From assembly GCF_058153355.1 (NCBI RefSeq), contig NZ_CM177019.1: DNA of 64,000 nt, one strand, 5' to 3'. Made by a program: the position numbers and the translations under genes. Below, piece by piece: positions 1-46,622 of the stretch. Numbering within the stretch: position 1 is the first letter of the stretch; each line of letters opens with the position of its first letter. Under the pieces are notes generated by a model. It was not told the DNA's origin. It saw nothing but the letters and a program-made list of their open reading frames with translations, and made no database searches.

Positions 1-358
1 CTTCAGAGTCATTAATCTGGGCGTAATGGTCAGCCAGGACGAATATATTGATGCTGCCATTGAAACTGGCGCTGACGCGATTGTCGTCTCCTCTATCTAT
101 GGGCATGGCGATATCGATTGTCTGGGCATGCGCGAACGCTGCATCGAGCGTGGGCTGGGTAACATCATGCTCTATGTGGGCGGTAACCTGGTGGTCGGAA
201 AACATGACTTCGCTGACGTGGAAACCAAGTTCAAAGAGATGGGATTTGATCGCGTCTTTTCCCCAAGTCATGACTTAGAAGATGTTTGTCAGCTGATGGC
301 CCACGATATCACCCAACGTCATGACGTTGATACTCGCATTCTTGAAGAGGCAATCTGA
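1..358 (+). CDS. Glutamate mutase small (sigma, B12-binding) subunit, 5'-truncated by window edge
   Basis: Frame continues open to position 2 (FRVINLGV upstream of the first Met). Translation resembles clostridial GlmS/MutS B12-binding subunit (AIETGAD..VSS.YG.G.IDC, VGGN.VVGK). Sits first in a glmS-glmL-glmE-mal gene order. Confidence 0.8.
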
Positions 359-1746
359 TGCAAATCGTCTCTGTCGATATTGGATCGACGTGGACCAAAG
401 CAGCCCTCTTCACCCGGGAGGGGGACGCGTTAACGTTGGTTAACCACGTTCTGACCCCAACCACCACCCATCATCTGGCGAAAGGGTTTTTCTCCAGCCT
501 GGACCAGGTGTTAAACGTAGATGATGCCCTCCCCCTGTTAAACAGTGGTGAGGTTGCATTGAAGTATTCCTCCTCTGCCGAAGGTGGGCTGGCGGTTGCC
601 GCAATGGGATTGGTGCCTTCTATCACCCTGGAAACCGCGAAAGTAACCGCTCACTCTGCGGGTGCTAAAATTGCGCAATATTACGCCTACAAGCTGAACC
701 GCCGTGATATCCAGGCACTGGAAGAAACGCAGCCCGATATTCTCTTGTTCACCGGCGGCACCGACGGCGGAGAAGAAAGCTACGGACTGAATAACGCCCG
801 TGTGCTGGCAGAATCCAAACTCGACTGCGCCATTATTTATGCCGGAAACCGGGATATTCAGGATAAGGTGCAGGAGATCCTCGGGCATAAAGACCTGACC
901 ATCGTCGACAACGTTCTGCCCGATCTTGACCATCCGAACCCTTTAGCTGCACGCCAGGCTATCTGCGACATATTCCTTAAACGCATCGTTAAAGGGAAAG
1001 GGCTGGATGTCATTGTTGATAAAACAGGCGAAGAACCAATGCCGACACCATGGACGGTCTTTGAACTGGTTAAGGCAATCAGTAACGTCGATCACAGCTG
1101 GAAAGAGTTCATGCTGATCGACATGGGCGGCGCAACCACCGATGTCTATTCCGCCTGTGCCAACACGCTCTCGCCCGACACTGTTTTACATGGCGTACCG
1201 GAACCCTTCGTAAAACGGACGGTGGAAGGCGATCTGGGAATGCGCGTCTCGGCAATGGTTGTTGGTGAAAGTGCGAAAGAGTTAGTCAGTGTGAATTTTG
1301 CTCAGCAACCCGCACAGTTGGACGCTTTTTATCATTACCTCCGTCATCTAGTCGCTCATCCCGACTACTTACCCGCGAATGCAGATGAAAAATATTTCGA
1401 TACCGTCCTGGCCGGACTGTGTGTGGGTTATGCCACCGAAAGACATGCGGGCACCAAAAAAGAGGTCTGCACCTGCGTCGGCAATGTCGATTTACAGATG
1501 GGACGTGATCTGACAACCGTGCGTAAAGTCGTGGGTTCCGGCGGATGGCTCTCACGTGCCAGTCAGTTCGATATGCATCACTGGTTGAAATACCGCGAGT
1601 TAAACGACGACGGTAAACGCATTCTCTTACCGACCGAATTTGAATATTACCGCGATTACCGGGGGCTATTACCACTGCTGGCAAACGTCGCCAGAGTCGA
1701 TCCGCTGGCCGCCGCGCGCACCAGTATTCAATGCTTAACCCTATAA
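358..1746 (+). CDS. glmL: Glutamate mutase-associated protein L (MutL/GlmL-like, putative reactivase/chaperone)
   Basis: 462-aa ORF lying between the mutase S and E subunit genes, as in clostridial glm/mut operons. Start overlaps the upstream stop (ATGA). Confidence 0.7.
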   Translation: MQIVSVDIGSTWTKAALFTREGDALTLVNHVLTPTTTHHLAKGFFSSLDQVLNVDDALPLLNSGEVALKYSSSAEGGLAVAAMGLVPSITLETAKVTAHSAGAKIAQYYAYKLNRRDIQALEETQPDILLFTGGTDGGEESYGLNNARVLAESKLDCAIIYAGNRDIQDKVQEILGHKDLTIVDNVLPDLDHPNPLAARQAICDIFLKRIVKGKGLDVIVDKTGEEPMPTPWTVFELVKAISNVDHSWKEFMLIDMGGATTDVYSACANTLSPDTVLHGVPEPFVKRTVEGDLGMRVSAMVVGESAKELVSVNFAQQPAQLDAFYHYLRHLVAHPDYLPANADEKYFDTVLAGLCVGYATERHAGTKKEVCTCVGNVDLQMGRDLTTVRKVVGSGGWLSRASQFDMHHWLKYRELNDDGKRILLPTEFEYYRDYRGLLPLLANVARVDPLAAARTSIQCLTL

Positions 1747-1764
1747 CAATTAAGGCTGCAATCA

Positions 1765-3210
1765 ATGGAACTTCGAAATAAGAAATTAACCCATGACGAA
1801 TTCATGACCGAGCGGCAACAGGTATTGAAAACCTGGGAAACCGGCAAGGATGTTGAAAACTTTGAAGATGGCGTTAAATACCAACAAACCATTCCTGAGC
1901 ATAAACGCTTCTCTCATGCCCTGCTGAAAGCAGACAAGGAAGGTAAAACCCTTAGCCAACCGCGCGCAGGCGTGGCGCTGATGGACGAACACATCGAACT
2001 ACTGAAAACACTACAAGAAGAGTGCGATCTGCTGCCGAGCACTATCGATGCATATACCCGTCTGAATCGGTACGAAGAAGCGGCTGTAGGGATTAAAAAA
2101 TCCATCGAAGCCAGAACCTCTAAACTGAACGGTTTACCGGTAGTTAACCACGGCGTCGCAGCTTGCCGTCGCCTCACCGAAACTCTGCAAAAACCGCTAC
2201 AGATCCGCCACGGCACGCCAGATGCGCGTCTGCTGGCTGAAATCTCGATGGCCAGCGGCTTTACCAGTTATGAAGGCGGCGGCATTTCCTACAATATTCC
2301 GTATGCCAAGCGCGTAACGCTGGAAAAATCGATCCGCGACTGGCAGTACTGCGACCGTTTAATGGGGATGTATGAAGAACACGGGATCCGCATCAACCGC
2401 GAACCGTTTGGCCCACTAACGGGTACGCTGATCCCGCCGTTTATCTCGCACTCTATCGCGATAATCGAAGGCTTGCTGGCACTGGAACAGGGTGTGAAAT
2501 CTATTACCGTTGGTTATGGACAGGTCGGCAGCCTGACGCAGGATGTCGCGGCGATCCAGTCTCTGCGTGAACTTGCACACGAATACTTTCAGAGCTATGG
2601 CTATACCGACTATGAATTAAGTACCGTATTTCACCAGTGGATGGGCGGCTTTCCGGAGGACGAATCGAAAGCGTTCGCCATTATCTCCTGGGGTGCTGCC
2701 GTCGCGGGGATGTCTGGTGCTACCAAAGTCATCACCAAAAGTCCGCACGAAGCCTGGGGCATCCCGACTGCTGCTGCCAACATTCAGGGGCTAAAAGCCT
2801 CCCGCCAGATGCTCAACATGGTCAACGAGCAGAAATTCCCGCCGTGCCCGGCGGTTGAACTGGAAATTGAACTGATTAAGAGCGAGGTTCGCGCTGTACT
2901 GAACAAAGTGTTCGAACTGGGTAATGGTGATATTGCGCGCGGTACGGTGCTGGCATTTGAAGCGGGCGTACTGGATGTACCGTTTGCCCCAGCCGCCTGC
3001 AACGCAGGCAAAATTCTTCCGGTCCGTGACAACACCGGCGCGATACGCGTACTGGAAGCCGGAGCCGTTCCATTGCCAAAAGATATTCTCGACCTCCACC
3101 ACGATTACGTTGCTGAACGCGCACGCTTTGAAGGACGCCAACCGACATTCCAGATGGTTGTAGATGACATCAATGCTGTATCCCACAGTAAATTAATAGG
3201 AAGACCATAA
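1765..3210 (+). CDS. glmE: Glutamate mutase large (epsilon) subunit / methylaspartate mutase E
   Basis: 481-aa ORF of the expected size and operon position between glmL and methylaspartase. Confidence 0.8.
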   Translation: MELRNKKLTHDEFMTERQQVLKTWETGKDVENFEDGVKYQQTIPEHKRFSHALLKADKEGKTLSQPRAGVALMDEHIELLKTLQEECDLLPSTIDAYTRLNRYEEAAVGIKKSIEARTSKLNGLPVVNHGVAACRRLTETLQKPLQIRHGTPDARLLAEISMASGFTSYEGGGISYNIPYAKRVTLEKSIRDWQYCDRLMGMYEEHGIRINREPFGPLTGTLIPPFISHSIAIIEGLLALEQGVKSITVGYGQVGSLTQDVAAIQSLRELAHEYFQSYGYTDYELSTVFHQWMGGFPEDESKAFAIISWGAAVAGMSGATKVITKSPHEAWGIPTAAANIQGLKASRQMLNMVNEQKFPPCPAVELEIELIKSEVRAVLNKVFELGNGDIARGTVLAFEAGVLDVPFAPAACNAGKILPVRDNTGAIRVLEAGAVPLPKDILDLHHDYVAERARFEGRQPTFQMVVDDINAVSHSKLIGRP

Positions 3211-4451
3211 TGAAAATAAAACAGGCCCTTTTCACCGCTGGCTACTCTTCATTCTATTTCGATGACCAGCAGGCGATAAAAAACGGAGCGGGTCACGACG
3301 GCTTTTTTTATACCGGAGAGCCGGTAACACAGGGGTTTAACGCCGTACGTCAGGCCGGGGAGTGCGTTTCGGTTCAGTTGATTCTGGAAAACGGTGCGGT
3401 CGCCGTAGGCGACTGTGCTGCCGTACAGTATTCCGGGGCAGGCGGTCGCGATCCACTGTTCCTCGCAGAGCACTTTATTCCGTTCCTCAACGACCATATC
3501 AAGCCATTACTGGTAGGCCGCGATGTGGATGCTTTCCTGCCGAATGCCCGTTTCTTCGACAAATTGCGTATTGACGGAAACTTGCTGCATACCGCCGTAC
3601 GTTACGGATTATCACAGGCGCTGCTTGATGCTACCGCGCTGGCAACCGGCCGTCTAAAAACTGAAGTGGTCTGTGATGAATGGCAGTTGCCACGCGTGGC
3701 GGAATCCATTCCATTATTTGGTCAGAGCGGCGACGATCGATATATCGCTGTCGATAAGATGATCCTTAAGGGCATCGACGTGCTACCTCATGCGCTGATT
3801 AATAACGTCGAAGAGAAACTGGGCTTTAAAGGAGAAAAACTGCGCGAATATGTCCGTTGGCTATCCGATCGGATTCTAAGCAAACGCACCAGCGCACGCT
3901 ACCACCCTACCCTGCACATCGATGTATACGGCACTATTGGTCTGATCTTCGATATGGATCCGCTTCGCTGTGCGCAATACATCGCCAGTCTGGAAAAAGA
4001 GGCGCAAGGCCTGCCGCTCTACATTGAGGGGCCGGTCGATGCCGGTAACAAGCCCGATCAAATTCGCCTGCTGACCGCGATTACCAAAGAGCTGACGCGC
4101 CTCGGTTCCGGCGTGAAAATTGTGGCCGATGAATGGTGTAACACCTACCAGGATATTGTTGATTTCACTGATGCCGCCAGTTGCCACATGGTGCAAATCA
4201 AAACCCCGGATCTGGGCAGTATTCACAACATCGTCGATGCAGTTCTTTATTGCAACAGCCACAGCATGGAAGCGTACCAGGGCGGCACCTGCAATGAAAC
4301 CGATGTCAGCGCCCGCACGTGTGTCCACGTCGCCCTTGCCGCTCGCCCTATGCGTATGCTGGTAAAACCGGGGATGGGCTTTGACGAAGGCCTCGATATC
4401 GTCTTCAACGAAATGAATCGTACTATCGCGCTGTTGCAGGCTAAGGATTAA
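3210..4451 (+). CDS. mal: 3-Methylaspartate ammonia-lyase (beta-methylaspartase)
   Basis: 413-aa ORF, same length as clostridial methylaspartase, enolase-superfamily-like. Start overlaps the glmE stop. Confidence 0.8.
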   Translation: MKIKQALFTAGYSSFYFDDQQAIKNGAGHDGFFYTGEPVTQGFNAVRQAGECVSVQLILENGAVAVGDCAAVQYSGAGGRDPLFLAEHFIPFLNDHIKPLLVGRDVDAFLPNARFFDKLRIDGNLLHTAVRYGLSQALLDATALATGRLKTEVVCDEWQLPRVAESIPLFGQSGDDRYIAVDKMILKGIDVLPHALINNVEEKLGFKGEKLREYVRWLSDRILSKRTSARYHPTLHIDVYGTIGLIFDMDPLRCAQYIASLEKEAQGLPLYIEGPVDAGNKPDQIRLLTAITKELTRLGSGVKIVADEWCNTYQDIVDFTDAASCHMVQIKTPDLGSIHNIVDAVLYCNSHSMEAYQGGTCNETDVSARTCVHVALAARPMRMLVKPGMGFDEGLDIVFNEMNRTIALLQAKD

Positions 4452-4454
4452 CAA

Positions 4455-5825
4455 ATGGCTCGTTCTTTTAAAGTCTTATCGCCAACGGCAATCCTCGGGT
4501 ATGGATTCCCGGAAGAGAGCTTCCGCAAAGCGATGGCAGAATCGCCCGATCTGATCGCCGTTGATGCAGGCTCTTCCGATCCTGGCCCCCACTACCTCGG
4601 GGCGGGCAAACCGTTTACCGATCGCGCAGGGGTCAAACGCGATCTACGCTATATGATCACCGCAGGCGTGCAAAATAATATACCGGTGGTGATCGGAACG
4701 GCCGGCGGTTCTGGTGCAGCTCCACACCTGGAGTGGTGCCGAGAAATAATTCATGAGATTGCCCGGGAAGAGCACCTCGCGTTCTCGATGGCGCTGATCC
4801 CGGCAGACGTTGACAAAGCCATCGTCCACCAGGCGCTGGATAACGGCAAAATCACGGCGCTGGATTTTGTCCCGCCGTTAACCCACGACGCGATTGACGA
4901 AAGTACGTATATCGTCGCGCAAATGGGCGTCGAACCCTTCCAGCAGGCGCTGAAAGAAGGCGCGCAAGTGGTGCTGGGCGGGCGCGCTTACGACCCGGCC
5001 TGCTTTGCTGCGCTACCGATCATGCAAGGCTTTGATGAAGGTCTGGCGCTGCATTGTGGGAAAATCCTTGAATGCGCGGCAATCGCCGCAACGCCCGGCT
5101 CAGGCTCTGACTGTGCGATGGGCATCATTGATGACAACGGCTTTACGCTGAAGACATTTAATCCGAAGCGTAAATTTACCGAAACGTCAGCGGCTGCACA
5201 CACACTGTATGAGAAATCCGATCCCTACTTCCTGCCAGGACCTGGCGGCGTGTTGAACCTGAAAGGTTGCACATTTAAAGCGATCAATGATGGCGAAGTT
5301 TACGTCAGCGGTTCTAAGCATGAAGAAACGCCCTATGCCCTGAAACTGGAAGGTGCGCGGCGGGTGGGTTTCCGCTGTTTGACCATCGCCGGAACGCGCG
5401 ACCCGATCATGATCGCCGGGATCGATAACATCATCGATGAAGTCAAAACCAGCGTTTCGCGTAATCTGTCCTTAGACGATGACAGCATTCGCATCAATTT
5501 CCACCTGTACGGCAAAAACGGGGTGATGGGTAACCATGAACCGATGCAAACTGCCGGGCATGAGCTGGGGATTGTCCTTGATGTAGTTGCACCGACCCAG
5601 GAAATTGCCAACAGCGTTTGCTCGCTGGTGCGCTCTACCATGCTGCACTACGGCTATGAAAACCGCATCGCTACCGCAGGCAACCTGGCGTTCCCGTTCT
5701 CCCCTTCTGATATCCAGGGCGGGCCGGTATACGAATTTTCCATATATCACCTGATTGAAGCCAACGACGCTCTGCGTTTTGATTTCCATATTGAACAGGT
5801 GACGCCAGAAGGAGTTCAGGCATGA
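4455..5825 (+). CDS. DUF1446 (AtuA-like) family protein, function unknown
   Basis: 456-aa ORF tightly packed in the operon; family assignment from recollection of AtuA-like sequence features. Confidence 0.6.
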   Translation: MARSFKVLSPTAILGYGFPEESFRKAMAESPDLIAVDAGSSDPGPHYLGAGKPFTDRAGVKRDLRYMITAGVQNNIPVVIGTAGGSGAAPHLEWCREIIHEIAREEHLAFSMALIPADVDKAIVHQALDNGKITALDFVPPLTHDAIDESTYIVAQMGVEPFQQALKEGAQVVLGGRAYDPACFAALPIMQGFDEGLALHCGKILECAAIAATPGSGSDCAMGIIDDNGFTLKTFNPKRKFTETSAAAHTLYEKSDPYFLPGPGGVLNLKGCTFKAINDGEVYVSGSKHEETPYALKLEGARRVGFRCLTIAGTRDPIMIAGIDNIIDEVKTSVSRNLSLDDDSIRINFHLYGKNGVMGNHEPMQTAGHELGIVLDVVAPTQEIANSVCSLVRSTMLHYGYENRIATAGNLAFPFSPSDIQGGPVYEFSIYHLIEANDALRFDFHIEQVTPEGVQA

Positions 5826-6139
5826 AACAGTCAATTGTCTCACTGGCGCAAGTCATTCGTTCGAAAAATGCCGGACCTTACGAACTGGTTTTAGATATTT
5901 TATTTAAAACGAAAGAAAACTATGAGCGAGTAAAATCATCAGGGCAATTAACCCCAGAACTGATTGCGCGCTTATATCATGTTGAACCTGACTTTATTCA
6001 TCGTATTGTCTGGTTTGATCCTTCTAACGCAGTAAAAATTGTCATGCCACGAGATATTATCTCCGGGAATGTAGGTGACAATGATGTCTATGGCGCACAG
6101 CAACATGCACCTTTATTAAATATGAGTTTCGATTTGTAA
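5822..6139 (+). CDS. Small DUF4387-like protein (usual partner of DUF1446 proteins)
   Basis: 105-aa ORF overlapping the upstream stop by 4 nt, indicating translational coupling. Confidence 0.55.
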   Translation: MKQSIVSLAQVIRSKNAGPYELVLDILFKTKENYERVKSSGQLTPELIARLYHVEPDFIHRIVWFDPSNAVKIVMPRDIISGNVGDNDVYGAQQHAPLLNMSFDL

Positions 6140-6299
6140 AAATCCGAACACTTTTAGCCAACTGACATCCCGTCACTTATTGCAGCTCAACACTTCAGCT
6201 ATTTGTAAGGTTGTTATAGCAGGTAGATGCCTGAATCTCTATTCAGGCATCCACTTCTCCTGATTCTGATTTATCGCCGTGCACCTGATGGAGGAAAAA

Positions 6300-7580
6300 A
6301 TGAAGAAAATAAGTTTAACCACGATGATTCTTTTGGCGCTGGTACTTGGAATGATTATCGGCGTAGTGCTCAATAACACTGCTTCACCGGAAACAGCAAA
6401 ACTCTATGCGCAAGAAATATCGATATTCACGACGATTTTCTTACGACTGATAAAAATGATTATCGCTCCGTTAGTGGTCTCTACCCTGGTGGTAGGTATT
6501 GCTAAAATGGGCGATGCCAAAGCCCTTGGTCGTATTTTTTCTAAAACACTCTTTTTATTTATTTGCGCCTCATTGCTGTCAATTGCCTTAGGCTTGATAA
6601 CGGTAAATTTCTTCATGCCAGGCACAGGAATTAATTTTGTTGCACACGGTGCCGAAACCACCGGAGTGGTCGCGTCAGAACCCTTTACACTAAAAGTATT
6701 TATTTCGCATGCTTTCCCCACCAGCATTGTCGATGCCATGGCGCACAATGAAATTTTGCAAATCGTGGTGTTCTCAATTTTCCTCGGCTGTAGCCTGACG
6801 GCGATTGGTGAGAAAGGCAGCGCCATCGTTCACGCCTTAGATTCGCTGGCACATGCCATGTTAAAGCTCACTGGCTACGTCATGCTCTTCGCTCCCCTGA
6901 CCGTATTCGCCGCTATTTCAGCATTGATTGCTGAACGAGGACTGGCAGTTATGGTGAGCGCCGGGATCTTTATGGGTGAATTTTATTTCACCATGTTATT
7001 ACTTTGGGTGCTGCTTATCGGTCTGGCCATCGTTTATGTCGGCCCCTGCATCAGACGCCTGACCCGCGCCCTTTCAGAACCCGCCCTGCTGGCATTTACC
7101 ACATCCAGTTCTGAAGCTGCTTTTCCGGGAACGCTTGAAAAACTGGAGCAATTTGGCGTTTCCCCCAAAATTGCCAGCTTTGTCTTACCCATTGGCTACT
7201 CATTTAATCTCGTTGGATCAATGGCCTACTGCTCCTTCGCCACAGTTTTCATCGCCCAGGCCTGCAATATCCATTTATCCATCGGTGAGCAAATCACCAT
7301 GCTGTTGATCCTGATGTTGACCTCGAAAGGAATGGCTGGCGTACCACGCGCCTCAATGGTGGTTATCGCCGCCACGCTCAACCAGTTCAATATTCCGGAA
7401 GCGGGGCTGATCTTGCTGATGGGCGTTGATCCGTTCCTTGATATGGGGCGTTCCGCGACAAACGTCATGAGCAACGCAATGGGCGCTGCGATGGTGAGTC
7501 GGTGGGAAGGCGAACATTTCGGCGAGGGTTGTCGGGGTAAAGCATTAAAACCCAATGAATCGAACGTTGCTCTGCCCTGA
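6300..7580 (+). CDS. Dicarboxylate/amino acid:cation symporter (DAACS family), likely glutamate/aspartate uptake
   Basis: Multi-pass membrane protein with GltP/GltT-like sequence. Start chosen at the ATG (6300) preceded by a GGAGGA ribosome-binding site. Confidence 0.8.
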   Translation: MKKISLTTMILLALVLGMIIGVVLNNTASPETAKLYAQEISIFTTIFLRLIKMIIAPLVVSTLVVGIAKMGDAKALGRIFSKTLFLFICASLLSIALGLITVNFFMPGTGINFVAHGAETTGVVASEPFTLKVFISHAFPTSIVDAMAHNEILQIVVFSIFLGCSLTAIGEKGSAIVHALDSLAHAMLKLTGYVMLFAPLTVFAAISALIAERGLAVMVSAGIFMGEFYFTMLLLWVLLIGLAIVYVGPCIRRLTRALSEPALLAFTTSSSEAAFPGTLEKLEQFGVSPKIASFVLPIGYSFNLVGSMAYCSFATVFIAQACNIHLSIGEQITMLLILMLTSKGMAGVPRASMVVIAATLNQFNIPEAGLILLMGVDPFLDMGRSATNVMSNAMGAAMVSRWEGEHFGEGCRGKALKPNESNVALP

Positions 7581-39068: not shown

Positions 39069-39153
39069 TACTGCTCCTGAACGGTTTACAGGAGTAAGTG
39101 TAGACGTTGGCAAATGATGTTTGTGAAGTTAATCCTGTTGTAGCAGGGCAAGA

Positions 39154-39977
39154 TTACGAAAGCACGCTCCCCGCAAGGACTGACGCCAGGTAGTTTCTGT
39201 CCATGGCTGCCCTTTCCATTCACACGTGAAATCAATAAGTTCATCAGGGACATCGCAAACAATGTGAAGACGGATTTCTTCTCTGCCGTGACTCTTTTCA
39301 CTAATTGCGTAACTGTCATGCTCTGGATTATTTAATTCTTTCAGTGAGAATTTTTCCTCAAAGGCTTTATTTAGCCGCCCCTGGTTTCCTTTTACAGCGA
39401 ATAAATAATCACCTCCCTGTTTTTGTATCTTCTCTGCAATATCTTTCTGGCAACCCATCGCATCAGTTGTGATGATTTTTCCTTTAATATCCAGCATGTT
39501 AAGAAGTTCAGGGATAGCTGTAATTTCATTTGATTTCTCATCCGTCCTGATCTGTCCGATGACCAGACTGTGCATTGTTGAGAACGCACTAATGACATGA
39601 ATCGCTCCCCTGCAGCGACTCTTGTCATAAGAATGCCGGAGCTTTTTTCCATCAATTGCAATGACGTCTTTATCATCTGAAGAATGGCAGTCACGCATCC
39701 AGTTAATAAAGCACTCGTGAAATTTTGCAGGACTGATACAGGATACAACTCTGGCAATGGTATCGTGAACAGGAATACCATTTTCAAAATCACCCTATTG
39801 CTTCAAAAAATCGAGATGTGTTTCCCCAAAATCCTCTATATCTTCTCAACCTTCTGCACCCGAAATAACGGCGCAAATAGTCAACAGTAGAATATCCGAT
39901 AATTTATGTTCCACTTTCCAGGCTTGTCTGTAATCGGGGATAATAGAAATATGTTCCATCAATTTTTTAAGTACCAT
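39154..39977 (-). pseudogene. H-repeat-associated (ISAs1-family) transposase pseudogene
   Basis: N-terminus [43 protein letters not shown] hits an in-frame TGA. Downstream frames carry [20 protein letters not shown]...[18 protein letters not shown] and the terminal [16 protein letters not shown], requiring a frameshift and an internal deletion after ...EWKG. Confidence 0.85.
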
Positions 39978-40370: not shown

Positions 40371-41192
40371 TCAGTATTGAGTTTCATTTGTGATCTCTAC
40401 ATTCACTCCTGATGGCTTCTCGCTAAATAAATATCTCATACTCTCATTCTCCATAATCACGGATATATTTAACCCTCCATGAATCCATTGATATGTAATA
40501 TTTTTATCATCAATCTTATAACTAAAATTCCCAATTGGTAACTTTTCCTTCAGATAATTATTCTCCTCATAACTAAGTGCTAGTAATTTATCATAGGCAC
40601 CTTTTAAATCAAAACCCTCAAAATAGCAATGTTCTTTTGATGAACCATCAAATTCTTTTCTGGGATTAGCATCATGACACCAAGTCGACCATTTTTCTTT
40701 TTTTTCCTCAGAAGTATGTTTTTTTTCATTGAAAAACAGCACATAATATTTCTCTGGGATTATTATCTGATCATTAATTTTTAAGATATCTCTATATGGC
40801 CCAGGACATTTATGAACAGAATCCATAATGGATATTTCTTCAGGAAAAAGTTTGCCTTCATGTTTAAATAATTTCCTGTACATACCAACTGTTGTTTGTG
40901 ATAAGTAATATGACAAGGGCTTTTTTTTAACTTCAACATAGTCAGTCGAGCATACGAGACTATTTTCCAATGAATAATCATTTATCGTTAGCTTTCGCCC
41001 ATCCATATTTATCACTACCTTACTGTATGTTTCATCAAGGGCACTTATTATAAGCGAATCATGTTTACCAAAAACATCGATATCTGAAACATTATGATAA
41101 ATCCATACGGTATTTTTAGTATTATCATTAGAATATGCGATACCATGAATAAAAAAAATCATTAGAAAGCCCATAAAAAATTTACCGCGCAT
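40371..41192 (-). CDS. Putative periplasmic immunity protein for the adjacent T6SS cell-wall-lytic effector
   Basis: 273-aa ORF with Sec-type signal peptide (MRGKFFMGFLMIFFIHGIAYS), Lys/Asn-rich, AT-rich codon usage, 19 bp downstream of the effector gene. No recognisable homology, so function is inferred from position. Confidence 0.6.
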   Translation of the reverse strand: MRGKFFMGFLMIFFIHGIAYSNDNTKNTVWIYHNVSDIDVFGKHDSLIISALDETYSKVVINMDGRKLTINDYSLENSLVCSTDYVEVKKKPLSYYLSQTTVGMYRKLFKHEGKLFPEEISIMDSVHKCPGPYRDILKINDQIIIPEKYYVLFFNEKKHTSEEKKEKWSTWCHDANPRKEFDGSSKEHCYFEGFDLKGAYDKLLALSYEENNYLKEKLPIGNFSYKIDDKNITYQWIHGGLNISVIMENESMRYLFSEKPSGVNVEITNETQY

Positions 41193-41211
41193 ACAAATTC
41201 CTTAATGTAAA

Positions 41212-43977
41212 TCAATGTGATGAATCATAAACATTATTCAAAAATAGATTTTGTTCTTTTCGGCGTCGTATAACAAGGCCAGCAACTCCGCCATTTGTAA
41301 TATCAAGAAATTCATTGGAGGCACCTATATAATCCTTTTGATTAAGTTTAGAATTCAAATTCGGTGCCTTACTCATGCTCCCCATATTAAACAATAAACT
41401 TATTAACGCATCAAATTCGTACTGATATAAATCCACACTCACTGTTCTTTTAAGCTCACTAACAAAACCAGATAAACGCTCTTCAAATAACTCATCAGCT
41501 TTAGCAATTGTTATTCCATGCTGAAATTCTTCTGGTAAAACTATATCATTGCAACGTTGTGTAGCAATTAAATGTCCATAACCTATAGTACAGTAACCTT
41601 CTGAATCATTATATGCTGTTAGTTGTAAATATTCCCATTCTTTTATAAAACCCTTACCTTTATTTGATACATTCAAATCTGCAATGGCGATCCTTTCAGC
41701 AGTTTGTTCTTCGTTAAAACTATTGATGTACCCCTCCATCAATATATCAATTGGATCATGTAAATCATCCCGTCTATAAAATGGAGGTATTTGTGTATTA
41801 TTCGGCGGAGGCGCTCCATTGTTTCCTGGATAGTATTCAAAATGCAACATATAAACCACTTCTTCCCCAGGGATTATAACTGGAGGCCTCCCTGTATCAG
41901 GTTTAATCATCAACCCTGTTTTGGCAATTATTGCCCCTTGCATAATATGATCATTAATCTTTACTAAAATACTTGATGGATCAACTTCACCATACCGCAC
42001 ATAGAAATGCCGACCATCTCTAGTCGAGTGCTCAATCGTAACTTGCCAAGTACCGTAATAGTATCGAGAAATAGCTCTTACTATTCCGTTGCAAACCGAA
42101 ACAATATCAGACTTCGGTTCCGTATATAGATCACGCGCTCCATGTTTTCTATTACCATTATTACGATTTCGTCCAAATATAGCTTGAGAGGCATTTCGAT
42201 CTGTCAAGGCAGCAGCCCAAAAATAATTTTTCCACTTTCCATTTTTGTCATTATTAGGTTTTACTTTTAAAGGAAAAATAATTTGATTTGATTTTTTCTG
42301 AGATAATGAATCTAAAAACACAACCGGATGAAAATGCCACACAGCATCATCACTATTAAACGGAGATACCCCGCTCATCCACTCCAGATCCAGCTGCCAC
42401 TTCTCACAGTATGCCACTTCCTCTGTATCCAGATCTTTATAAAATCCTTCCCACCGCCCTGTCGAGCGCCCTCCGTACCATTCGCTGTGGTGTTTAACTA
42501 TCAGATGATTCACCACATTTCTCACCAGTGGTTCACGCACGATCAGCGCCTGTCTGATCTCTTCCTCCGTCACTTTTCCATCACCGTCCTGATCCATACC
42601 CGCCATCAGCTCACGATAAAAGGGCGGTACCTGCTCATACAGCCACTCATCTCCCTGTTCTGCGGCACGGCTTATTGAGTCAAACGCTTCCGGCACCCAT
42701 CCTTCGTACGGGCTGTACGTCATGTCACCGCTGCTGTTCTCCTCCAGCGGTTGAAAACCCAGCTTCAGTAAATCATACTGTCCGGCCTCTTCAACATCCT
42801 TTTGTGGCAGCCAGCCGGTTCCGGTGATATTAAACCACCACTGCTGCGATTCATCCGTGACTGGTGTCGTGGCTTCCCGCGGAAGAACGCGCTGAGCACC
42901 CAGCGTGGCTGCGGTTGCGGTAAATACCTCCTGTCCCGGAACGGCCTGCCGGGTGTATAAAATTATCCCTTTTGGTGCCAGAACAGTCCGTTTTTCTCCC
43001 TTAACGCCTGCCGGGTTGGATAAGAACTTTGGCATATTCGGGTCTGTACTCAGAACCTCCAGATGGACGAACCACTCGCGCTCAATCTCACCGCTTCCCT
43101 CGCCAGGATAATCCTCGCATCCCATAAATCCGACCGGTGTTCCGGCACTGACTTTCCACTCTTCCGTTTCGTCGACCGTCTGTACCGAGTCAAAAATGCC
43201 TTTTGCCTTCGCCTTCTGCATCCACTCAGGCATCAGCATCTGTATTTCGCCATCTGACTCCATCAGATCCGGATCCAGGGTCACCCAGTACTGCTCATTC
43301 CCCGGTTTATTGCCTTCCAGCAGGCGAACCAGTCCGAATGTCGTCAGGACCGGCTGGCCGTTATTGGTCACGTAAAAACGTCCGGTCCGGGATGACACAA
43401 ACCGATCTCCCGCATTAAGTGTCCTGTTTCCGCTGATTTTCGGGGGTATCCAGTACGTGGCATGATCTCCGCTTTCCTGCCCCTCGGGAAGGCCGTTCTT
43501 TCCCGGGATGTATCGGTGCAGCAATATGCCACCATGCCCGGTTTTAACTTTATAGCAGGGGGAGCCGGGATAATCGTTCACCGGGGCCAGATGCATATAG
43601 AGACAGTAAAATTCCAGCCAGCTTTCTTTTTTTTGCGGGTCTGGCTGGCACTGCGATTTCACCAGAACAAATGTGCTGCTGTAACGGAGTTGCTGCCCTT
43701 TGTAGGGGCCTTTCAGGTAATCATTATTTATCCGGTACGCCGCAATGGTGCCATCGGCCATAAACTGAAGAGGAACCGGTTCTCCGGTAGCGGCGGTATC
43801 CGGTTTCAGGGCTGATAACGGATTAGACACGTCACTGATATGTATCCCGCCGTGCCACAGCCCGTTTCCACCCAGCAGCCAGGTTCCGTGCGCTTCTTTG
43901 TCAATAAGCCGCATTATCTCATCCAGTGAGCGAAACTCTTTGCCTTCTTTATCCCTGATGGGATGGCTGATTTTCAT
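41212..43977 (-). CDS. VgrG-linked T6SS effector with C-terminal T4-lysozyme-like (GH24) muramidase domain and internal M23-peptidase-like domain
   Basis: 921 aa. Residues ~770-915 align motif-for-motif with T4 lysozyme (KEWEYLQLTAYNDSEGYCTIGYGHL vs ...[24 protein letters not shown]; Glu/Asp/Thr triad positions present). Residues ~605-716 carry HGARD...MLHFEYY, resembling M23 HxxxD...HxH. EF-hand-like loop DQDGDGKVTEEE at residues 462-473. Start lies 9 nt after the vgrG stop with an AGGA ribosome-binding site. Confidence 0.75.
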   Translation of the reverse strand: MKISHPIRDKEGKEFRSLDEIMRLIDKEAHGTWLLGGNGLWHGGIHISDVSNPLSALKPDTAATGEPVPLQFMADGTIAAYRINNDYLKGPYKGQQLRYSSTFVLVKSQCQPDPQKKESWLEFYCLYMHLAPVNDYPGSPCYKVKTGHGGILLHRYIPGKNGLPEGQESGDHATYWIPPKISGNRTLNAGDRFVSSRTGRFYVTNNGQPVLTTFGLVRLLEGNKPGNEQYWVTLDPDLMESDGEIQMLMPEWMQKAKAKGIFDSVQTVDETEEWKVSAGTPVGFMGCEDYPGEGSGEIEREWFVHLEVLSTDPNMPKFLSNPAGVKGEKRTVLAPKGIILYTRQAVPGQEVFTATAATLGAQRVLPREATTPVTDESQQWWFNITGTGWLPQKDVEEAGQYDLLKLGFQPLEENSSGDMTYSPYEGWVPEAFDSISRAAEQGDEWLYEQVPPFYRELMAGMDQDGDGKVTEEEIRQALIVREPLVRNVVNHLIVKHHSEWYGGRSTGRWEGFYKDLDTEEVAYCEKWQLDLEWMSGVSPFNSDDAVWHFHPVVFLDSLSQKKSNQIIFPLKVKPNNDKNGKWKNYFWAAALTDRNASQAIFGRNRNNGNRKHGARDLYTEPKSDIVSVCNGIVRAISRYYYGTWQVTIEHSTRDGRHFYVRYGEVDPSSILVKINDHIMQGAIIAKTGLMIKPDTGRPPVIIPGEEVVYMLHFEYYPGNNGAPPPNNTQIPPFYRRDDLHDPIDILMEGYINSFNEEQTAERIAIADLNVSNKGKGFIKEWEYLQLTAYNDSEGYCTIGYGHLIATQRCNDIVLPEEFQHGITIAKADELFEERLSGFVSELKRTVSVDLYQYEFDALISLLFNMGSMSKAPNLNSKLNQKDYIGASNEFLDITNGGVAGLVIRRRKEQNLFLNNVYDSSH

Positions 43978-43986
43978 GTTCAGTCC

Positions 43987-46185
43987 TTATCGTGAGAATC
44001 TTCCCGGCCGTTGTGGCGGTACCTTATCCTGCTGGGGAGGATCAAAGGCTTCCTGTACACTTTTCCGTGGTGGCTCCGCCCCTTCAGTTCCAGGTCCGCC
44101 ATTGTCATAATCTGCCAGCGCTTTCAAAACCGCCGGTCGTAGCGTCGGCACCGGCGTTCCCGGACTACCGCCGCTATTGAGATTGATTTTCGGCCCGACG
44201 ATGTCCACGCCCCCTGAATGGATGACCACAAACGAACCACCCACCTTTAGGGTGATTTTACCGCCACTCTCCAGTACGATTTCATTCCGGACCTTCATTC
44301 CCAGCGCACCGGTAATCTTCCTCGCCAGGTCGCCCTTCACCTCCAGACTGTGCTTTCCCTCCACCAGGCTGATATGGTTCCCCGTCGTCTTATGCTCCTG
44401 CTTCCCTTCCACCGTCACTTTACGGTCGTTTCTGACATACAGGCCGTCATCGTGACTCACGCTCACCGTCCGGTCATTCGTCACCTTCAGCGTCTGGTCA
44501 TTACGTACCGTTATGCGCCGGTCGTTCGCCACCGTGATACTCTGGTCGTGACCCCCTTCTTTTCTGGTGCCGACCTCAACCGTCTGCCCCTTCACCACCC
44601 TTATCTTCTGGTCGTTACCGATGGTCTCCGTATGGTCATGCTTCACGTCCGTCGTCCGGTCGTTAAGCACCTCCGTGTCCATGTTCTTCTGCGCGTGGAT
44701 ATACACCTGCTCACTGTCCGTCGCATCCTCGAAACGCAGTTCATTAAAGCCGCTTCCTTTATAGGTCTTCGAGCGGATGGTCATCTGCGTCCGCGTGCCC
44801 GGTAAATCCCCCGGTGAACGGTTATCTTCATGGTAGGTCCGCCCCGTCACAATGGGCTGGTCCGGGTCGCCGTTCAGAAAGTCCACTATCACTTCCTGAC
44901 CCACACGCGGTATCGCCAGATTGCCGAACCCCGGTCCCGCCCATGCCTGCGACACCCGTATCCAGCACGAACTCTCCTCCGTCATCCCGTGATAACGGTC
45001 CCAGTGAAACTTCACCCGTACCCGGCCATGCTCGTCGCAGAATATCTCCTCACCCTTCGGCCCGGTCACGATGGCACTCTGCGGGCCGTCCACCTTCGGC
45101 TTCGGCAGCGGCGCGTGACGCCACGTCCTGTCTGCCGGTATCACCTCAAACTGATTGCTCAGTGTCGTCCCTTCACCGTGACTCCCGTGCAGCGCCTGCG
45201 GCTGTTCTCCCCGCAGTGTGCTTCCCACAACCTGCCATTCCCGGTTCAGCGTCTCTGAGGGATGGCCCGTCAGCCGGAACCGCGTTCCCGGCCACAGCCG
45301 CGCCGTGTTACACACCCCGCTCGCCGTCTCCGCCCCGTTCCGCCACCCTTCCGTCTGGTAACGCGCAAAATCCTGGCCATGCTGCTCATCCTTGAAACGC
45401 CCCGGATAATCAAATATCTCGTACTGCGTTCCCTGCCCGTTCAGGCTCTCCCCGTCATGGCTGTAGTACCCCGGCCACCCCGGCGTTTTGAACGTATAAT
45501 CCTGCGTCTCCACCGACGCCACGCTTATCTGCGCACGGTAACGAAACTCACTGATGTACTCCGTCGTTCCCCCGGTCGTGGTATTCGGGTTAAACGCCAG
45601 CGCCCCCATTCCCGTCAGCCCCGCCACGTCATCACACACCGCCAGCTTCTGCTCCGGCCCTTCCTGACCGCAGCGCTCATAAAAGAAGATACCTTCCTCC
45701 GCCCACAGCCGGGTCAGGAATGCCAGGTCGCTCTCCCCGTACTGCACGCAGAACTCCCGCGCCGGGTGCGCCTCATAGAACAGCGGCATCCACGCCGTCA
45801 CCCCGTTCTCTCTCAGAAGCTGTGCTGATATCGTCTGAATGTCCTGCTGCTGGAAGATACGGAAGTTCTGCCGTAACCCTGCCCGCCACAGCGGCGGGCT
45901 GATGCTCAGGGAATAACGCATCTGCCAGTCGTTGTTCTCACCGAGCTGCACCTCCGTCACGATACCGCTGACGTAACGCTGCGGGATATCACCCTGCCAG
46001 ACCGTCAGCACCGCGCTCTTCTCCAGAAAATCCTCCGCCATCAGGTCGGACAGCCCGCTGGCGATATCCACATCCAGGATGAACGACGTGCAGTGGTGCT
46101 GGTACAGACGGAAGCTCACCACCGCCGTCGCCATCTCCACGATACCGTCCACCGACAGCGTGAAACGTAATCCTTCTGAGGACAT
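43987..46185 (-). CDS. vgrG: Type VI secretion system spike protein VgrG
   Basis: N-terminus MSSEGLRFTLSVDGI and gp27/gp5-like VgrG sequence (FRLYQ..., ISPPLWRAGLRQNFRIFQ, EGIFFYE). The ORF track offers an upstream ATG at 46218; 46185 is preferred by comparison with typical VgrG N-termini. Confidence 0.9.
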   Translation of the reverse strand: MSSEGLRFTLSVDGIVEMATAVVSFRLYQHHCTSFILDVDIASGLSDLMAEDFLEKSAVLTVWQGDIPQRYVSGIVTEVQLGENNDWQMRYSLSISPPLWRAGLRQNFRIFQQQDIQTISAQLLRENGVTAWMPLFYEAHPAREFCVQYGESDLAFLTRLWAEEGIFFYERCGQEGPEQKLAVCDDVAGLTGMGALAFNPNTTTGGTTEYISEFRYRAQISVASVETQDYTFKTPGWPGYYSHDGESLNGQGTQYEIFDYPGRFKDEQHGQDFARYQTEGWRNGAETASGVCNTARLWPGTRFRLTGHPSETLNREWQVVGSTLRGEQPQALHGSHGEGTTLSNQFEVIPADRTWRHAPLPKPKVDGPQSAIVTGPKGEEIFCDEHGRVRVKFHWDRYHGMTEESSCWIRVSQAWAGPGFGNLAIPRVGQEVIVDFLNGDPDQPIVTGRTYHEDNRSPGDLPGTRTQMTIRSKTYKGSGFNELRFEDATDSEQVYIHAQKNMDTEVLNDRTTDVKHDHTETIGNDQKIRVVKGQTVEVGTRKEGGHDQSITVANDRRITVRNDQTLKVTNDRTVSVSHDDGLYVRNDRKVTVEGKQEHKTTGNHISLVEGKHSLEVKGDLARKITGALGMKVRNEIVLESGGKITLKVGGSFVVIHSGGVDIVGPKINLNSGGSPGTPVPTLRPAVLKALADYDNGGPGTEGAEPPRKSVQEAFDPPQQDKVPPQRPGRFSR

Positions 46186-46360
46186 ATAAACCCCATAGCT
46201 ACCGCACTCATGGTGCAAACCATACGGGCTTATAAGAAAGGCTTAAGTGAGATATCTGCCAGATAGCAACTATTAGGAAAATATTTATATATATTTCATG
46301 AATATATATTTCGGTTGGTATAACGGTGTCTAAATATTCCTCTGAACATCTTCCTGATAC

Positions 46361-46415: not shown

Positions 46416-46622
46416 TCAGTAAAAATCACCGGTTGCCTTTTCGGCCTGATCCATCCACACCGGTTTATCGCTGGTTTTCGACCAGACGCGATGCAGGTAG
46501 CTGTAAAAGCGGGCGCGGTCTTTCCAGAAAAGCATGAAAGGCAGCGCCAGGACGCCCGCTGCAACCGCATAAGTACGGCGTAAAAAGATAAGCCATGCAG
46601 GATATTCTCTGTAGAGTTCCAT
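46416..46622 (-). CDS. ybfA: DUF2517-family small protein
   Basis: 68-aa [46 protein letters not shown]. Confidence 0.9.

Follow-up and report, generated by a model that had tools for sequence, protein, structure and literature searches.

The window analysed here, a stretch of 64,000 nucleotides, carries on its minus strand an orphan T6SS 'vgrG island' of an E. coli-group chromosome. The island consists of a vgrG gene followed by the genes encoding an effector and a 273-residue signal-peptide protein and by an ISAs1 transposase fragment; it is flanked by ybfA and kdpFABCDE upstream and by ybgA and phr downstream (Table 1). The other large ORFs of the window have housekeeping functions (kdp, speF/potE, sdh/suc and others), and no T6SS core genes were found within the 64 kb. 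The site between ybfA/kdp and ybgA/phr is the position occupied by rhsC in K-12. The locus resembles the E. coli vgrG/Rhs islands in its site, in the ISAs1 (H-repeat) remnant at the distal end (where NF033564 covers profile positions 66-229 of 314), and in its low-GC, polymorphic cargo and immunity genes, whereas it carries as cargo a WHIX peptidoglycan hydrolase instead of a PAAR/Rhs toxin.

Table 1. Features of the vgrG island, with positions in the window.
Feature	Position	Strand	Basis
vgrG (tssI) CDS, 732 aa	43987..46185	-	Phage_GPD, Phage_base_V and Gp5_trimer_C; TIGR03361
Hinge, S671-D692, ~22 aa, SGGSPGTPVPTLRPAVLKALAD	44110..44175	-	alignment with other E. coli VgrG alleles
Variable Gly/acidic spacer, Y693-A703, ~11 aa, YDNGGPGTEGA	44077..44109	-	comparison of protein clusters
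Putative cargo-linked docking module, E704-R732, ~29 aa, EPPRKSVQEAFDPPQQDKVPPQRPGRFSR	43990..44076	-	co-occurrence, cross-genus conservation
Extreme C-terminal motif, R729-F-S-R732	43990..44001	-	conservation across carriers
Stop codon and 9-bp gap	43978..43989	-	Shine-Dalgarno-like TAAGGA overlaps the stop codon
WHIX domain, effector residues 1-558	42304..43977	-	WHxxxH motif, homology to catalogued WHIX proteins
Putative EF-hand calcium-binding loop, effector residues 455-478, DQDGDGKVTEEEI	42544..42615	-	PF00036, E 4.8e-5
Toxic C-terminal part of the effector	41212..42303	-	PF00959, PF01551; stop codon 41212-41214
M23-peptidase-like region, effector residues 611-688	41914-42147	-	PF01551, 27.4 bits vs. 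cut-off 28.7
GH24 phage-type lysozyme, effector residues 779-908	41254-41643	-	PF00959, E 3.9e-25
Candidate immunity protein, 273 aa	40371..41192	-	position and N-terminal signal-peptide-like hydrophobic segment
Truncated ISAs1-family (H-repeat) transposase, distal end of the island	39129..39698	-	DDE_Tnp_1; NF033564

The vgrG gene starts with an ATG at 46185 (a TTG at 46218, in the same open frame, is a possible alternative start) and ends with a TAA at 43987-43989, the final residue, R732, being encoded by 43990-43992. Three plus-strand ORFs (43898-44110, 43992-44180 and 44177-44455) were regarded as shadow ORFs of this 59% GC gene. The Pfam scan placed Phage_GPD at residues 34-328, Phage_base_V at 385-451 and Gp5_trimer_C at 468-542, and the NCBIfam model TIGR03361 matched the protein with an E-value of 5e-176. 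The beta-helices of solved gp5/VgrG structures align with it until residue ~670 (position 205 of a query beginning at residue 466). Past residue 542, no Pfam model matched at E 0.01 or better; the tail of the protein has no significant match among solved structures and is covered by no Pfam or NCBIfam family. Moreover, neither a DUF2345 nor a TTR-like domain was found by the Pfam scan after the gp5 repeats. According to the Pfam, NCBIfam and structure alignments, this VgrG is a canonical gp27/gp5 core without a folded C-terminal effector or extension domain, and the domain scans ruled out both a DUF2345/TTR extension and an 'evolved VgrG'.

The protein finishes with a Pro/Gly-rich tail of 61-65 residues. 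The peptide quoted in the earlier note reads exactly on the minus strand, its 65 residues spanning 43990-44184; the Gly/Pro-rich tail of about 70 residues claimed there was confirmed, except that its limit at 44200 is too far, VGPKI being the last turn of the beta-helix. Proline and glycine represent 18.5% and 12.3% of the tail versus 3.9% and 10.2% of the remainder of VgrG, and the maximum proline content of any 65-residue window of the core is 10.8%. The description of the segment as low-complexity and proline-rich holds for the proline, whereas an entropy of 3.7 bits (4.16 for the core) is not that of a strictly low-complexity sequence. The tail is probably disordered.

Three parts can be recognized in it. 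The hinge directly follows the last beta-helix turn (GPKINLN) and is common, in the alignment, to the VgrGs of STEC299 (with DUF4123/Tle1 cargo) and UPEC536 and to the second VgrG of locus L001; the DNA similarity of vgrG to about 640 E. coli genomes ends at 44107-44144. The spacer varies in sequence and in length (roughly 8-30 residues) over the 14 protein clusters having the same tail design. The putative docking module begins with EPPRK and ends with VPPQRPGRFSR; its conserved anchors are V-Q-[DE]-x-F, V-P-P-Q and the C-terminal R-F-S-R, and the extreme C-terminus is the most conserved portion of the whole tail.

The effector encoded downstream is 921 residues long. Its ATG lies at 43977, and exactly 9 bp (coding strand: ggactgaac) separate it from vgrG, as previously reported for this DNA. 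It is a WHIX protein of subclass I, with the landmarks WHGGIH (residues 41-46) and the conserved KHHSEW (495-500) and WHFHP (547-551); W41, H42 and H46 are invariant in an alignment of 18 sequences and at least 90% conserved in alignments of 46-49 sequences. Residues 1-558 share 99% identity with E. coli WP_000703217.1 (corresponding by length and locus, L001, to our protein cluster P0001), which is present in the WHIX tree and C-terminus supplementary files of Fridman et al. 2025 (PMC12135965). This N-terminus of about 558 residues occurs in at least 275 protein clusters, fused to many different peptidoglycan hydrolases; distant WHIX relatives are found in Pseudomonas and Aeromonas (including an A. 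dhakensis locus), those from Aeromonas being ~27-40% identical over the best segment. In the AlphaFold model (pTM 0.82-0.84) the WHIX domain has an M23/LytM-like core with SH3b-like subdomains. The PF00036 match to the putative EF-hand loop is just under the Pfam cut-off, and the loop falls in a lower-confidence helical part of the model; its D462 is nearly invariant in the alignments of 46-49 sequences. The C-terminus of the effector resembles WP_032211049.1, a member of the 'Lysozyme-like' WHIX class.

The gene of the 273-residue protein has a GC content of 31%, and its product matched neither Pfam nor NCBIfam families. In its position and signal peptide it agrees with the genes reported downstream of WHIX effectors (PMC12135965), and by analogy the protein is likely the immunity factor. 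A domain scan of the neighbours of the vgrG-effector pair did not retrieve any DUF4123, DUF1795, DUF2169 or PAAR, either between or beside the two genes, in agreement with the adaptor gene having been called absent. Adaptor-dependent loading of the DUF4123/Tap-Tec, DUF1795/Eag or DUF2169 type was ruled out at the locus on the grounds of the 9-bp gap and of neighbours lacking these families; an adaptor may be encoded elsewhere in the genome.

The earlier note had proposed the tail as a direct docking site for the effector, specific to its family, and had suggested a comparison of E. coli vgrG C-termini with the downstream effectors. This comparison was carried out on 5,426 E. coli genomes: the DNA of the distal tail is present in three of them, and that of the effector N-terminus in the same three, adjacent each time. 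The same VgrG scaffold is found with other tails and other cargo in about 640 E. coli genomes; where both scaffold and hinge are shared, the different tails are followed by a DUF4123 adaptor and Tle1, or by an M35 peptidase, and the UPEC536-type allele bears an extension of ~100 residues. The distal tail, therefore, was not seen in VgrGs with unrelated cargo: it strictly co-occurs with WHIX cargo. More generally, in E. coli, its close relatives and other genera, the tail diverges among VgrG alleles having a common core and co-varies with the type of cargo. A search of the protein database with the 51-residue tail alone retrieved no match (the word index requires three shared 5-mers), and a 133-residue query retrieved only short VgrG fragments. 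As a reverse check, two sampled contigs encoding the tail design were inspected, and a WHIX gene follows in both of them, immediately in the Salmonella contig and behind the gene of a DUF3828 protein in the Enterobacter one.

The proposed specificity for the effector family holds for the last ~29 residues and not for the first ~22, which are common to alleles with unrelated cargo; only the distal ~29 residues track WHIX cargo, and neither the hinge nor the spacer. The Gly/Pro richness marks a linker, not the recognition element. This bears on a different reading, in which the whole segment of ~70 Gly/Pro-rich residues is the binding surface, one version of it assuming PxxP-type contacts to SH3-like effector subdomains. 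The proline content of the tail is in line with such an idea, as is the stretch P724-Q-R-P727-G-R729, which fits the class II SH3 ligand pattern PxxPxR. However, besides the sharing of the hinge by VgrGs with unrelated cargo and the variability of the spacer, the pattern does not keep its second proline among relatives (VPPQRRGRFSR, VPPQIQRIFSR, PPASDGVMSR), and PAAR, Aeromonas and Pseudomonas carriers keep the terminal motif only, without the proline pattern. We consider the whole segment quite improbable as a binding surface, and, given the variable second proline, the SH3-ligand reading of VPPQRPGR was rejected as a mechanism of general validity.

The R-F-S-R end is one case of a [F/I/L/M]-S-[R/E/D]-COOH motif found on VgrG and PAAR carriers encoded upstream of WHIX genes. 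By hand count, about 50 of about 53 such carriers have this end, although they represent roughly eight independent lineages and their relatedness inflates the figure; the tally includes subclass II loci, in which an immunity gene intervenes. Carriers of the motif comprise short VgrGs, longer VgrGs whose C-terminal region differs (Citrobacter, Pantoea, Buttiauxella and Lelliottia), the VgrGs of Pseudomonas, Aeromonas and Cupriavidus, and PAAR proteins (Siccibacter and Erwinia). The deviating ones include that of Rahnella, ending with ...KDFSA, and that of Marinobacter, where LFS lies six residues before the end. The motif was found in none of about ten other VgrGs encoded at the same loci. In Siccibacter and Erwinia, the PAAR gene is located between vgrG and the WHIX gene, and it is the PAAR protein that ends with ...LLSR or ...IFSR, the VgrG ending with ...APDRR. 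The terminal motif is conserved at the protein level on different carriers.

The conservation of the last vgrG codons could in principle reflect a constraint acting on the nucleotides, through the ribosome-binding site and translational coupling of the effector gene, and not a signal in the protein. The TAAGGA overlapping the stop codon, together with the 9-bp spacing, forms an arrangement suited to translational coupling and kept from Escherichia to Aeromonas. Nevertheless, the Shine-Dalgarno-like bases sit in the stop codon and the gap, outside the sense codons, and synonymous variation is seen in the codons for F, S and R/E (TTC/TTT; TCA/TCG/TCT/TCC; CGA/CGG/CGC; GAA/GAG/GAT). Furthermore, the motif is kept at loci with a gap of 20-200 bp, with a TGA stop or with an intervening immunity gene. 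Because the codons vary synonymously and the motif persists when gap and stop are changed, selection on the terminal motif acts on the protein; the nucleotide-level explanation is hardly credible and, given the synonymous variation and the long-gap loci, was rejected as the cause of the conserved end.

Two Aeromonas systems provide experimental counterparts. In A. jandaei, removal of the last 14 residues of VgrG4 abolished both the co-precipitation and the secretion of the Awe1 WHIX domain, while VgrG4 itself was still secreted, and the WHIX cavity was modelled as capping the VgrG4 tail (PMC12135965). In A. dhakensis, a tail of ~30 residues of VgrG2 dictates the delivery of TseP, a chaperone-independent WHIX-type effector, and is sufficient to redirect it (Liang et al. 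2021, PMC8668125). TseP-N binds VgrG2, and TseP-C likewise pulled it down in vitro (eLife 2025, PMC11893102).

The pair VgrG4-Awe1 (PLoS Biol 2025) and the one described here both include a WHIX domain with WHxxxH fused to peptidoglycan hydrolase domains, an upstream vgrG without adaptor, and a signal-peptide immunity gene adjoining the effector; VgrG4 ends with ...KVSFSGR, loading requiring the last 14 residues, and the present VgrG with ...GRFSR. However, Awe1 belongs to subclass II, with toxic domains flanking WHIX and the immunity gene between vgrG and effector, whereas the effector described here has an N-terminal WHIX domain followed by two tandem hydrolase modules; the sequence identity is low. 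As for VgrG2-TseP, the similarities are a canonical VgrG with a divergent tail, the chaperone independence of TseP, whose N-terminal ~600 residues bind VgrG, an identical 9-bp gap with a stop codon that overlaps the SD (A. dhakensis locus L044), and a GC content dropping stepwise from vgrG to the WHIX domain and to the toxin domain. On the other hand, the VgrG2 tail ends with ...AFYLFSE and so bears the opposite charge at its terminus, the C-terminal part of TseP consists of just one lysozyme domain, and TseP-N is reported to be a Zn-dependent amidase.

On the basis of the co-occurrence and of the experiments on homologues (PMC12135965, PMC8668125), which support the tail as a candidate direct docking site, the distal module of the VgrG tail is very probably bound directly, without adaptor, by the WHIX domain of the neighbouring effector, its predicted receptor. 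By analogy with these homologues, we infer a physical WHIX-tail binding and a requirement of the tail for secretion. Hinge, spacer and docking module would form a flexible three-part tail ending the spike, the Pro/Gly-rich stretch serving to tether a ~100-kDa cargo so that it can be accommodated next to the spike tip; recognition would reside in the distal module, above all in its free C-terminal [hydrophobic]-S-[R/E] end. Through direct binding of WHIX residues 1-558 to this module, the effector would ride the spike and be fired into a rival cell, where the M23-like and lysozyme domains would degrade peptidoglycan, the 273-residue signal-peptide protein acting as the putative immunity factor.

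The opposite possibility is that the tail represents a mere disordered end or leftover linker, loading of the effector relying on a PAAR protein, on an adaptor from another locus or on beta-helix contacts. It could draw on the AlphaFold single-chain docking, which gave no confident placement, on the PAAR gene that separates vgrG from the WHIX gene at the Siccibacter and Erwinia loci, and on the pull-down of VgrG2 by TseP-C (PMC11893102). It is nonetheless very unlikely in view of the strict co-occurrence of the distal tail with WHIX cargo, of the ...LLSR/...IFSR end being borne, in the PAAR loci, by the PAAR protein and not by VgrG, and of the published tail truncation and swapping in the two Aeromonas systems (PMC12135965, PMC8668125).

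Direct tail docking of WHIX effectors was already published between 2021 and 2025, and the locus is an ordinary new example of it. The docking interpretation is thus supported but not new, since it has already been shown for WHIX homologues, and the finding itself will not surprise a specialist. The VgrG of the EAEC Sci-1 system carries a DUF2345 and a transthyretin-like C-terminal domain, on which Tle1 docks directly without an adaptor. Direct adaptor-free docking on a C-terminal extension of an E. coli VgrG is also what is predicted here; the extension is folded in EAEC, whereas here it is a Pro-rich tail of ~61 residues modelled as disordered, and the cargo families differ. Agrobacterium VgrG1/Tap-1 (DUF4123) and VgrG2/DUF2169 are examples of adaptor-dependent VgrG tails. 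With these, and with the E. coli STEC299 type, the present VgrG shares the principle of a divergent short C-terminus specifying the cargo on a conserved scaffold, and with the STEC299 allele also the scaffold and hinge themselves; however, adaptor-dependent tails (...KECLKRAQEAAAAFAPRG) bind an adaptor-effector complex, whereas no adaptor gene accompanies the pair here.

The present data add an Escherichia example to the known T6SS loading mode in which a WHIX domain caps a VgrG tail, and the survey sharpens the recognition element to a distal module of ~29 residues with a short C-terminal motif, found in several gamma- and betaproteobacterial genera. They might be used for the sequence-based prediction of which spike carries which WHIX effector, as a guide for tail-graft engineering of T6SS delivery, and for mutational or structural tests of WHIX loading on precisely named residues; according to a 2026 paper, the molecular-level workings of WHIX-VgrG loading are still unexamined (PMC13323088).

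A further step, which we put forward tentatively and consider possible but doubtful, is that [hydrophobic]-S-[R/E]-COOH represents a portable, universal WHIX-loading tag of VgrG and PAAR proteins, acting as a pseudo-substrate or product mimic in the LytM/M23-like Zn groove. The tail would then insert into the LytM-like groove of the WHIX domain. If so, the need for a free C-terminus would be explained, as well as the fact that most Zn-site mutants of TseP-N lost both the structural/loading role and the amidase activity (PMC11893102); moreover, the groove might be freed for peptidoglycan after the effector has departed from the spike.

In AlphaFold2 single-chain models (WHIX domain, Gly-Ser linker and tail), a pLDDT of at least 50 was reached, with 12 paired rows, only in the last five residues, GRFSR; without a tail alignment, linker and tail were all below 50. 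When the terminal R/E and the WHIX residues were screened for charge-swap covariation, positions 301, 71 and 527 came out as candidates; they are only a lead, as the division into two tail types follows that into two clades. Position 301, four residues before the invariant H305, is acidic if the tag ends with R and basic if it ends with E, a pattern that makes it a candidate specificity contact.

The vgrG ORF, read on the minus strand, terminates in exactly the peptide quoted by the earlier note, which had pointed to a Pro/Gly-rich tail; the last 65 residues indeed contain 18.5% Pro and 12.3% Gly vs. 3.9% and 10.2% in the core, where Pro reaches at most 10.8% in any 65-aa window. Judging from its sequence, the 732-aa protein is a canonical VgrG, with Pfam matches to Phage_GPD (residues 34–328), Phage_base_V (385–451), and Gp5_trimer_C (468–542) and a match to TIGR03361 (E 5e-176). 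Solved gp5/VgrG beta-helices could be aligned up to residue ~670, and the solved structures compared gave no match past this point. In the best reading, the tail divides into a hinge (S671–D692), a spacer (Y693–A703), and a putative docking module (E704–R732), which the neighbouring effector would recognise through its WHIX domain.

The island harbors vgrG, the effector gene, a gene for a 273-aa signal-peptide protein, and an ISAs1 transposase fragment, flanked by ybfA/kdpFABCDE on one side and ybgA/phr on the other. The ybfA–ybgA interval is the rhsC site of E. coli K-12; the sdhA gene of the window is 95–99.4% identical to E. coli genomes. No T6SS core gene, PAAR, or adaptor family was found within the 64-kb window, in agreement with the claimed absence of an adaptor gene, and the positions of the vgrG stop and effector start codons confirm the 9-bp gap. 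A Shine-Dalgarno-like TAAGGA overlaps the stop codon and the gap; the same arrangement is kept from Escherichia to Aeromonas (loci L004–L008 and L044–L065 from other genomes), which suggests that the translation of spike and cargo is tightly coupled. GC content decreases stepwise over 40371–46185 (vgrG 0.60, WHIX 0.53, toxin end 0.35, immunity gene 0.31; flanks 0.54), which points to a mosaic island that recombined at the hinge and where WHIX meets the toxin end.

Table. Coordinates of the features in the window and in loci from other genomes.
Feature	Sequence	Coordinates	Strand	Remark
vgrG stop codon TAA	window	43987–43989	minus	ORF reading
Effector ATG start	window	43977	minus	921-aa ORF, next after vgrG
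TAAGGA	window	43978–43989 (stop codon plus 9-bp gap)		
Effector gene	window	41212–43977	minus	
EF-hand loop	window	42544–42615	minus	effector residues 455–478
Truncated ISAs1 (H-repeat) transposase	window	39129–39698		ends island
Island site, ybfA side	window	46416–46622		
Chitinase-like toxin end, 136-aa downstream gene	L001 (E. coli CP169399)	3460–6783 (region incl. orphan ORFs)		
Chitinase-like toxin end, 136-aa downstream gene	L084 (E. coli CM169999)	2080–4123 (region incl. orphan ORFs)		
VgrG allele on window scaffold, with following 690-aa protein	L089 (E. coli WTPO01000001)	1–2552		
Motif-bearing small PAAR (Siccibacter, Erwinia)	L013	5530–5964		between vgrG and WHIX gene
Motif-bearing small PAAR (Siccibacter, Erwinia)	L014	916–1353		between vgrG and WHIX gene
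Motif-bearing small PAAR (Siccibacter, Erwinia)	L015	2201–2647		between vgrG and WHIX gene

The first ~558 effector residues match at least 275 protein clusters from Citrobacter, Salmonella, Enterobacter, Klebsiella, Cronobacter, Pantoea, and other genera, and a genome scan retrieved remoter relatives in Pseudomonas, Aeromonas (including an A. dhakensis locus), and Cupriavidus. The proteins of these clusters combine this N-terminus with GH19-like, pesticin-like, GH108, CHAP, N-acetylmuramidase, or M23+lysozyme ends. The conserved WHGGIH (WHxxxH) motif and these relatives mark the region as the WHIX domain of Fridman et al. 2025 (PMC12135965), whose dataset includes E. coli WP_000703217.1, 99% identical over residues 1–558.

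The association between tail and cargo was checked in 5,426 complete E. coli genomes, using as a probe the DNA of the last 46 vgrG codons. Tail DNA was retrieved from three of them, and the DNA of the effector N-terminus from the same three, adjoining the tail in each case; here the pair lies in a different vgrG island, adjoining yibF, with a chitinase-like toxin end and an immunity gene different from that of the window. The vgrG scaffold is common to ~640 other genomes, with similarity ending at 44107–44144 of the window, and its other-cargo alleles precede a DUF4123 adaptor and Tle1, or an M35 peptidase. In the protein alignment, SGGSPGTPVPTLRPAVLKALAD, immediately past the beta-helix, is common to these other-cargo alleles, which makes roughly a third of the "tail" a generic hinge and leaves the proposed effector specificity to the distal part.

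In the three E. coli genomes with this pair (loci L001 and L084), a 136-aa gene lies downstream of the toxin end, and past an ISAs1 fragment there are orphan "EF-hand" and "N-acetylmuramidase" ORFs, which look like a displaced WHIX C-terminus/toxin tip, analogous to orphan Rhs tips. The E. coli VgrG allele of L089, on the window's scaffold, ends in ...ETRVKFMFS (similar ...KF[MI]FS ends occur in P0137, P0142, and P0148). The next gene encodes a 690-aa protein that has a WHGGVH motif, matches the WHIX profile weakly (E 2e-14, chiefly in its N-terminal region), and gives a Pfam M23 match below threshold (residues 42–155); this may represent a divergent WHIX-like class with another terminal tag.

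Across genera, the proteins encoded upstream of WHIX genes have alike C-terminal ends despite differing carrier type: ...PPQRRGR[FI]SR on longer VgrGs whose C-terminal region differs (Citrobacter, Pantoea, Buttiauxella, Lelliottia), ...GVMSR (Kosakonia, Serratia), ...LLSR or ...IFSR on 145–149-aa proteins confirmed as PAAR (Siccibacter, Erwinia), ...FVFSE (Pseudomonas, including subclass II loci with an intervening immunity gene), ...YLFSE (Aeromonas), ...FGFSE (Cupriavidus), and ...NLFSD. About ten same-locus VgrGs not preceding WHIX have different ends. Where the motif is PAAR-borne, the neighbouring VgrG lacks it (ending in ...APDRR in Siccibacter and Erwinia), so that the same tag can ride on the PAAR tip. 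Fourteen protein clusters (Escherichia, Pseudocitrobacter, Salmonella, Citrobacter, Enterobacter, and Huaxiibacter) are built alike, with the hinge, a variable spacer, and EPPRKNVQDTF...VPPQxxx[RI]FSR in succession; in the reverse check, from tail to cargo, a WHIX gene came next in both sampled contigs, immediately in Salmonella and with a DUF3828 protein in between in Enterobacter. A constraint at the nucleotide level is contradicted by the synonymous variation of the last vgrG codons and by loci that keep the motif although the gap is long or the stop codon another one, and the TAAGGA falls within stop codon and gap; the constraint thus acts on the protein.

Experiments on homologues agree with the docking of WHIX on the tail. 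When A. jandaei VgrG4 is shortened by the 14 C-terminal residues (...KVSFSGR), its own secretion continues, and the WHIX domain is neither bound nor exported; a deep WHIX cavity was proposed to cap the tail (PMC12135965). In A. dhakensis, ~30-aa VgrG tails dictate effector specificity, and VgrG3 given the VgrG2 tail delivers the chaperone-independent TseP (PMC8668125), whose N-terminal part, reported as a Zn-dependent amidase, binds VgrG2 (PMC11893102). Together with the E. coli co-occurrence and the cross-genus motif, these data support the tail as a direct docking site for this effector family. The mechanism is already published, and the Escherichia pair would be a candidate further case; the modest additions here are the dissection of the tail and the [F/I/L/M]-S-[R/E/D]-COOH end on VgrG and PAAR carriers, a motif that the WHIX paper does not describe in its main text (PMC12135965). 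According to a 2026 paper, a molecular-level examination of WHIX is still wanting (PMC13323088).

In AlphaFold models of WHIX, a Gly-Ser linker, and the tail as one chain with a free C-terminus, pLDDT ≥50 was confined to the five C-terminal residues (GRFSR) with 12 paired alignment rows; without the tail alignment, linker and tail were all below 50. One may speculate that the tail fills the LytM-like groove of WHIX as a pseudo-substrate, which would fit the unexplained finding that most Zn-site mutants of TseP lose the structural role (PMC11893102) and WHIX position 301, charge-swapped between tail types and confounded by phylogeny.

C-terminal to WHIX, the effector carries two tandem hydrolase modules, M23-like (residues 611–688; 27.4 bits, just under the Pfam cut-off of 28.7) and GH24 phage-type lysozyme (779–908; Pfam, E 3.9e-25), followed by only one candidate immunity gene, whereas in the published "double-blade" layout WHIX is flanked by a toxic domain on either side and there are two immunity genes. 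WHIX itself embeds a canonical EF-hand calcium loop, DQDGDGKVTEEEI, in a lower-confidence helical part of the model (residues 441–480, pLDDT 53–66); its residue D462 is nearly invariant across genera.
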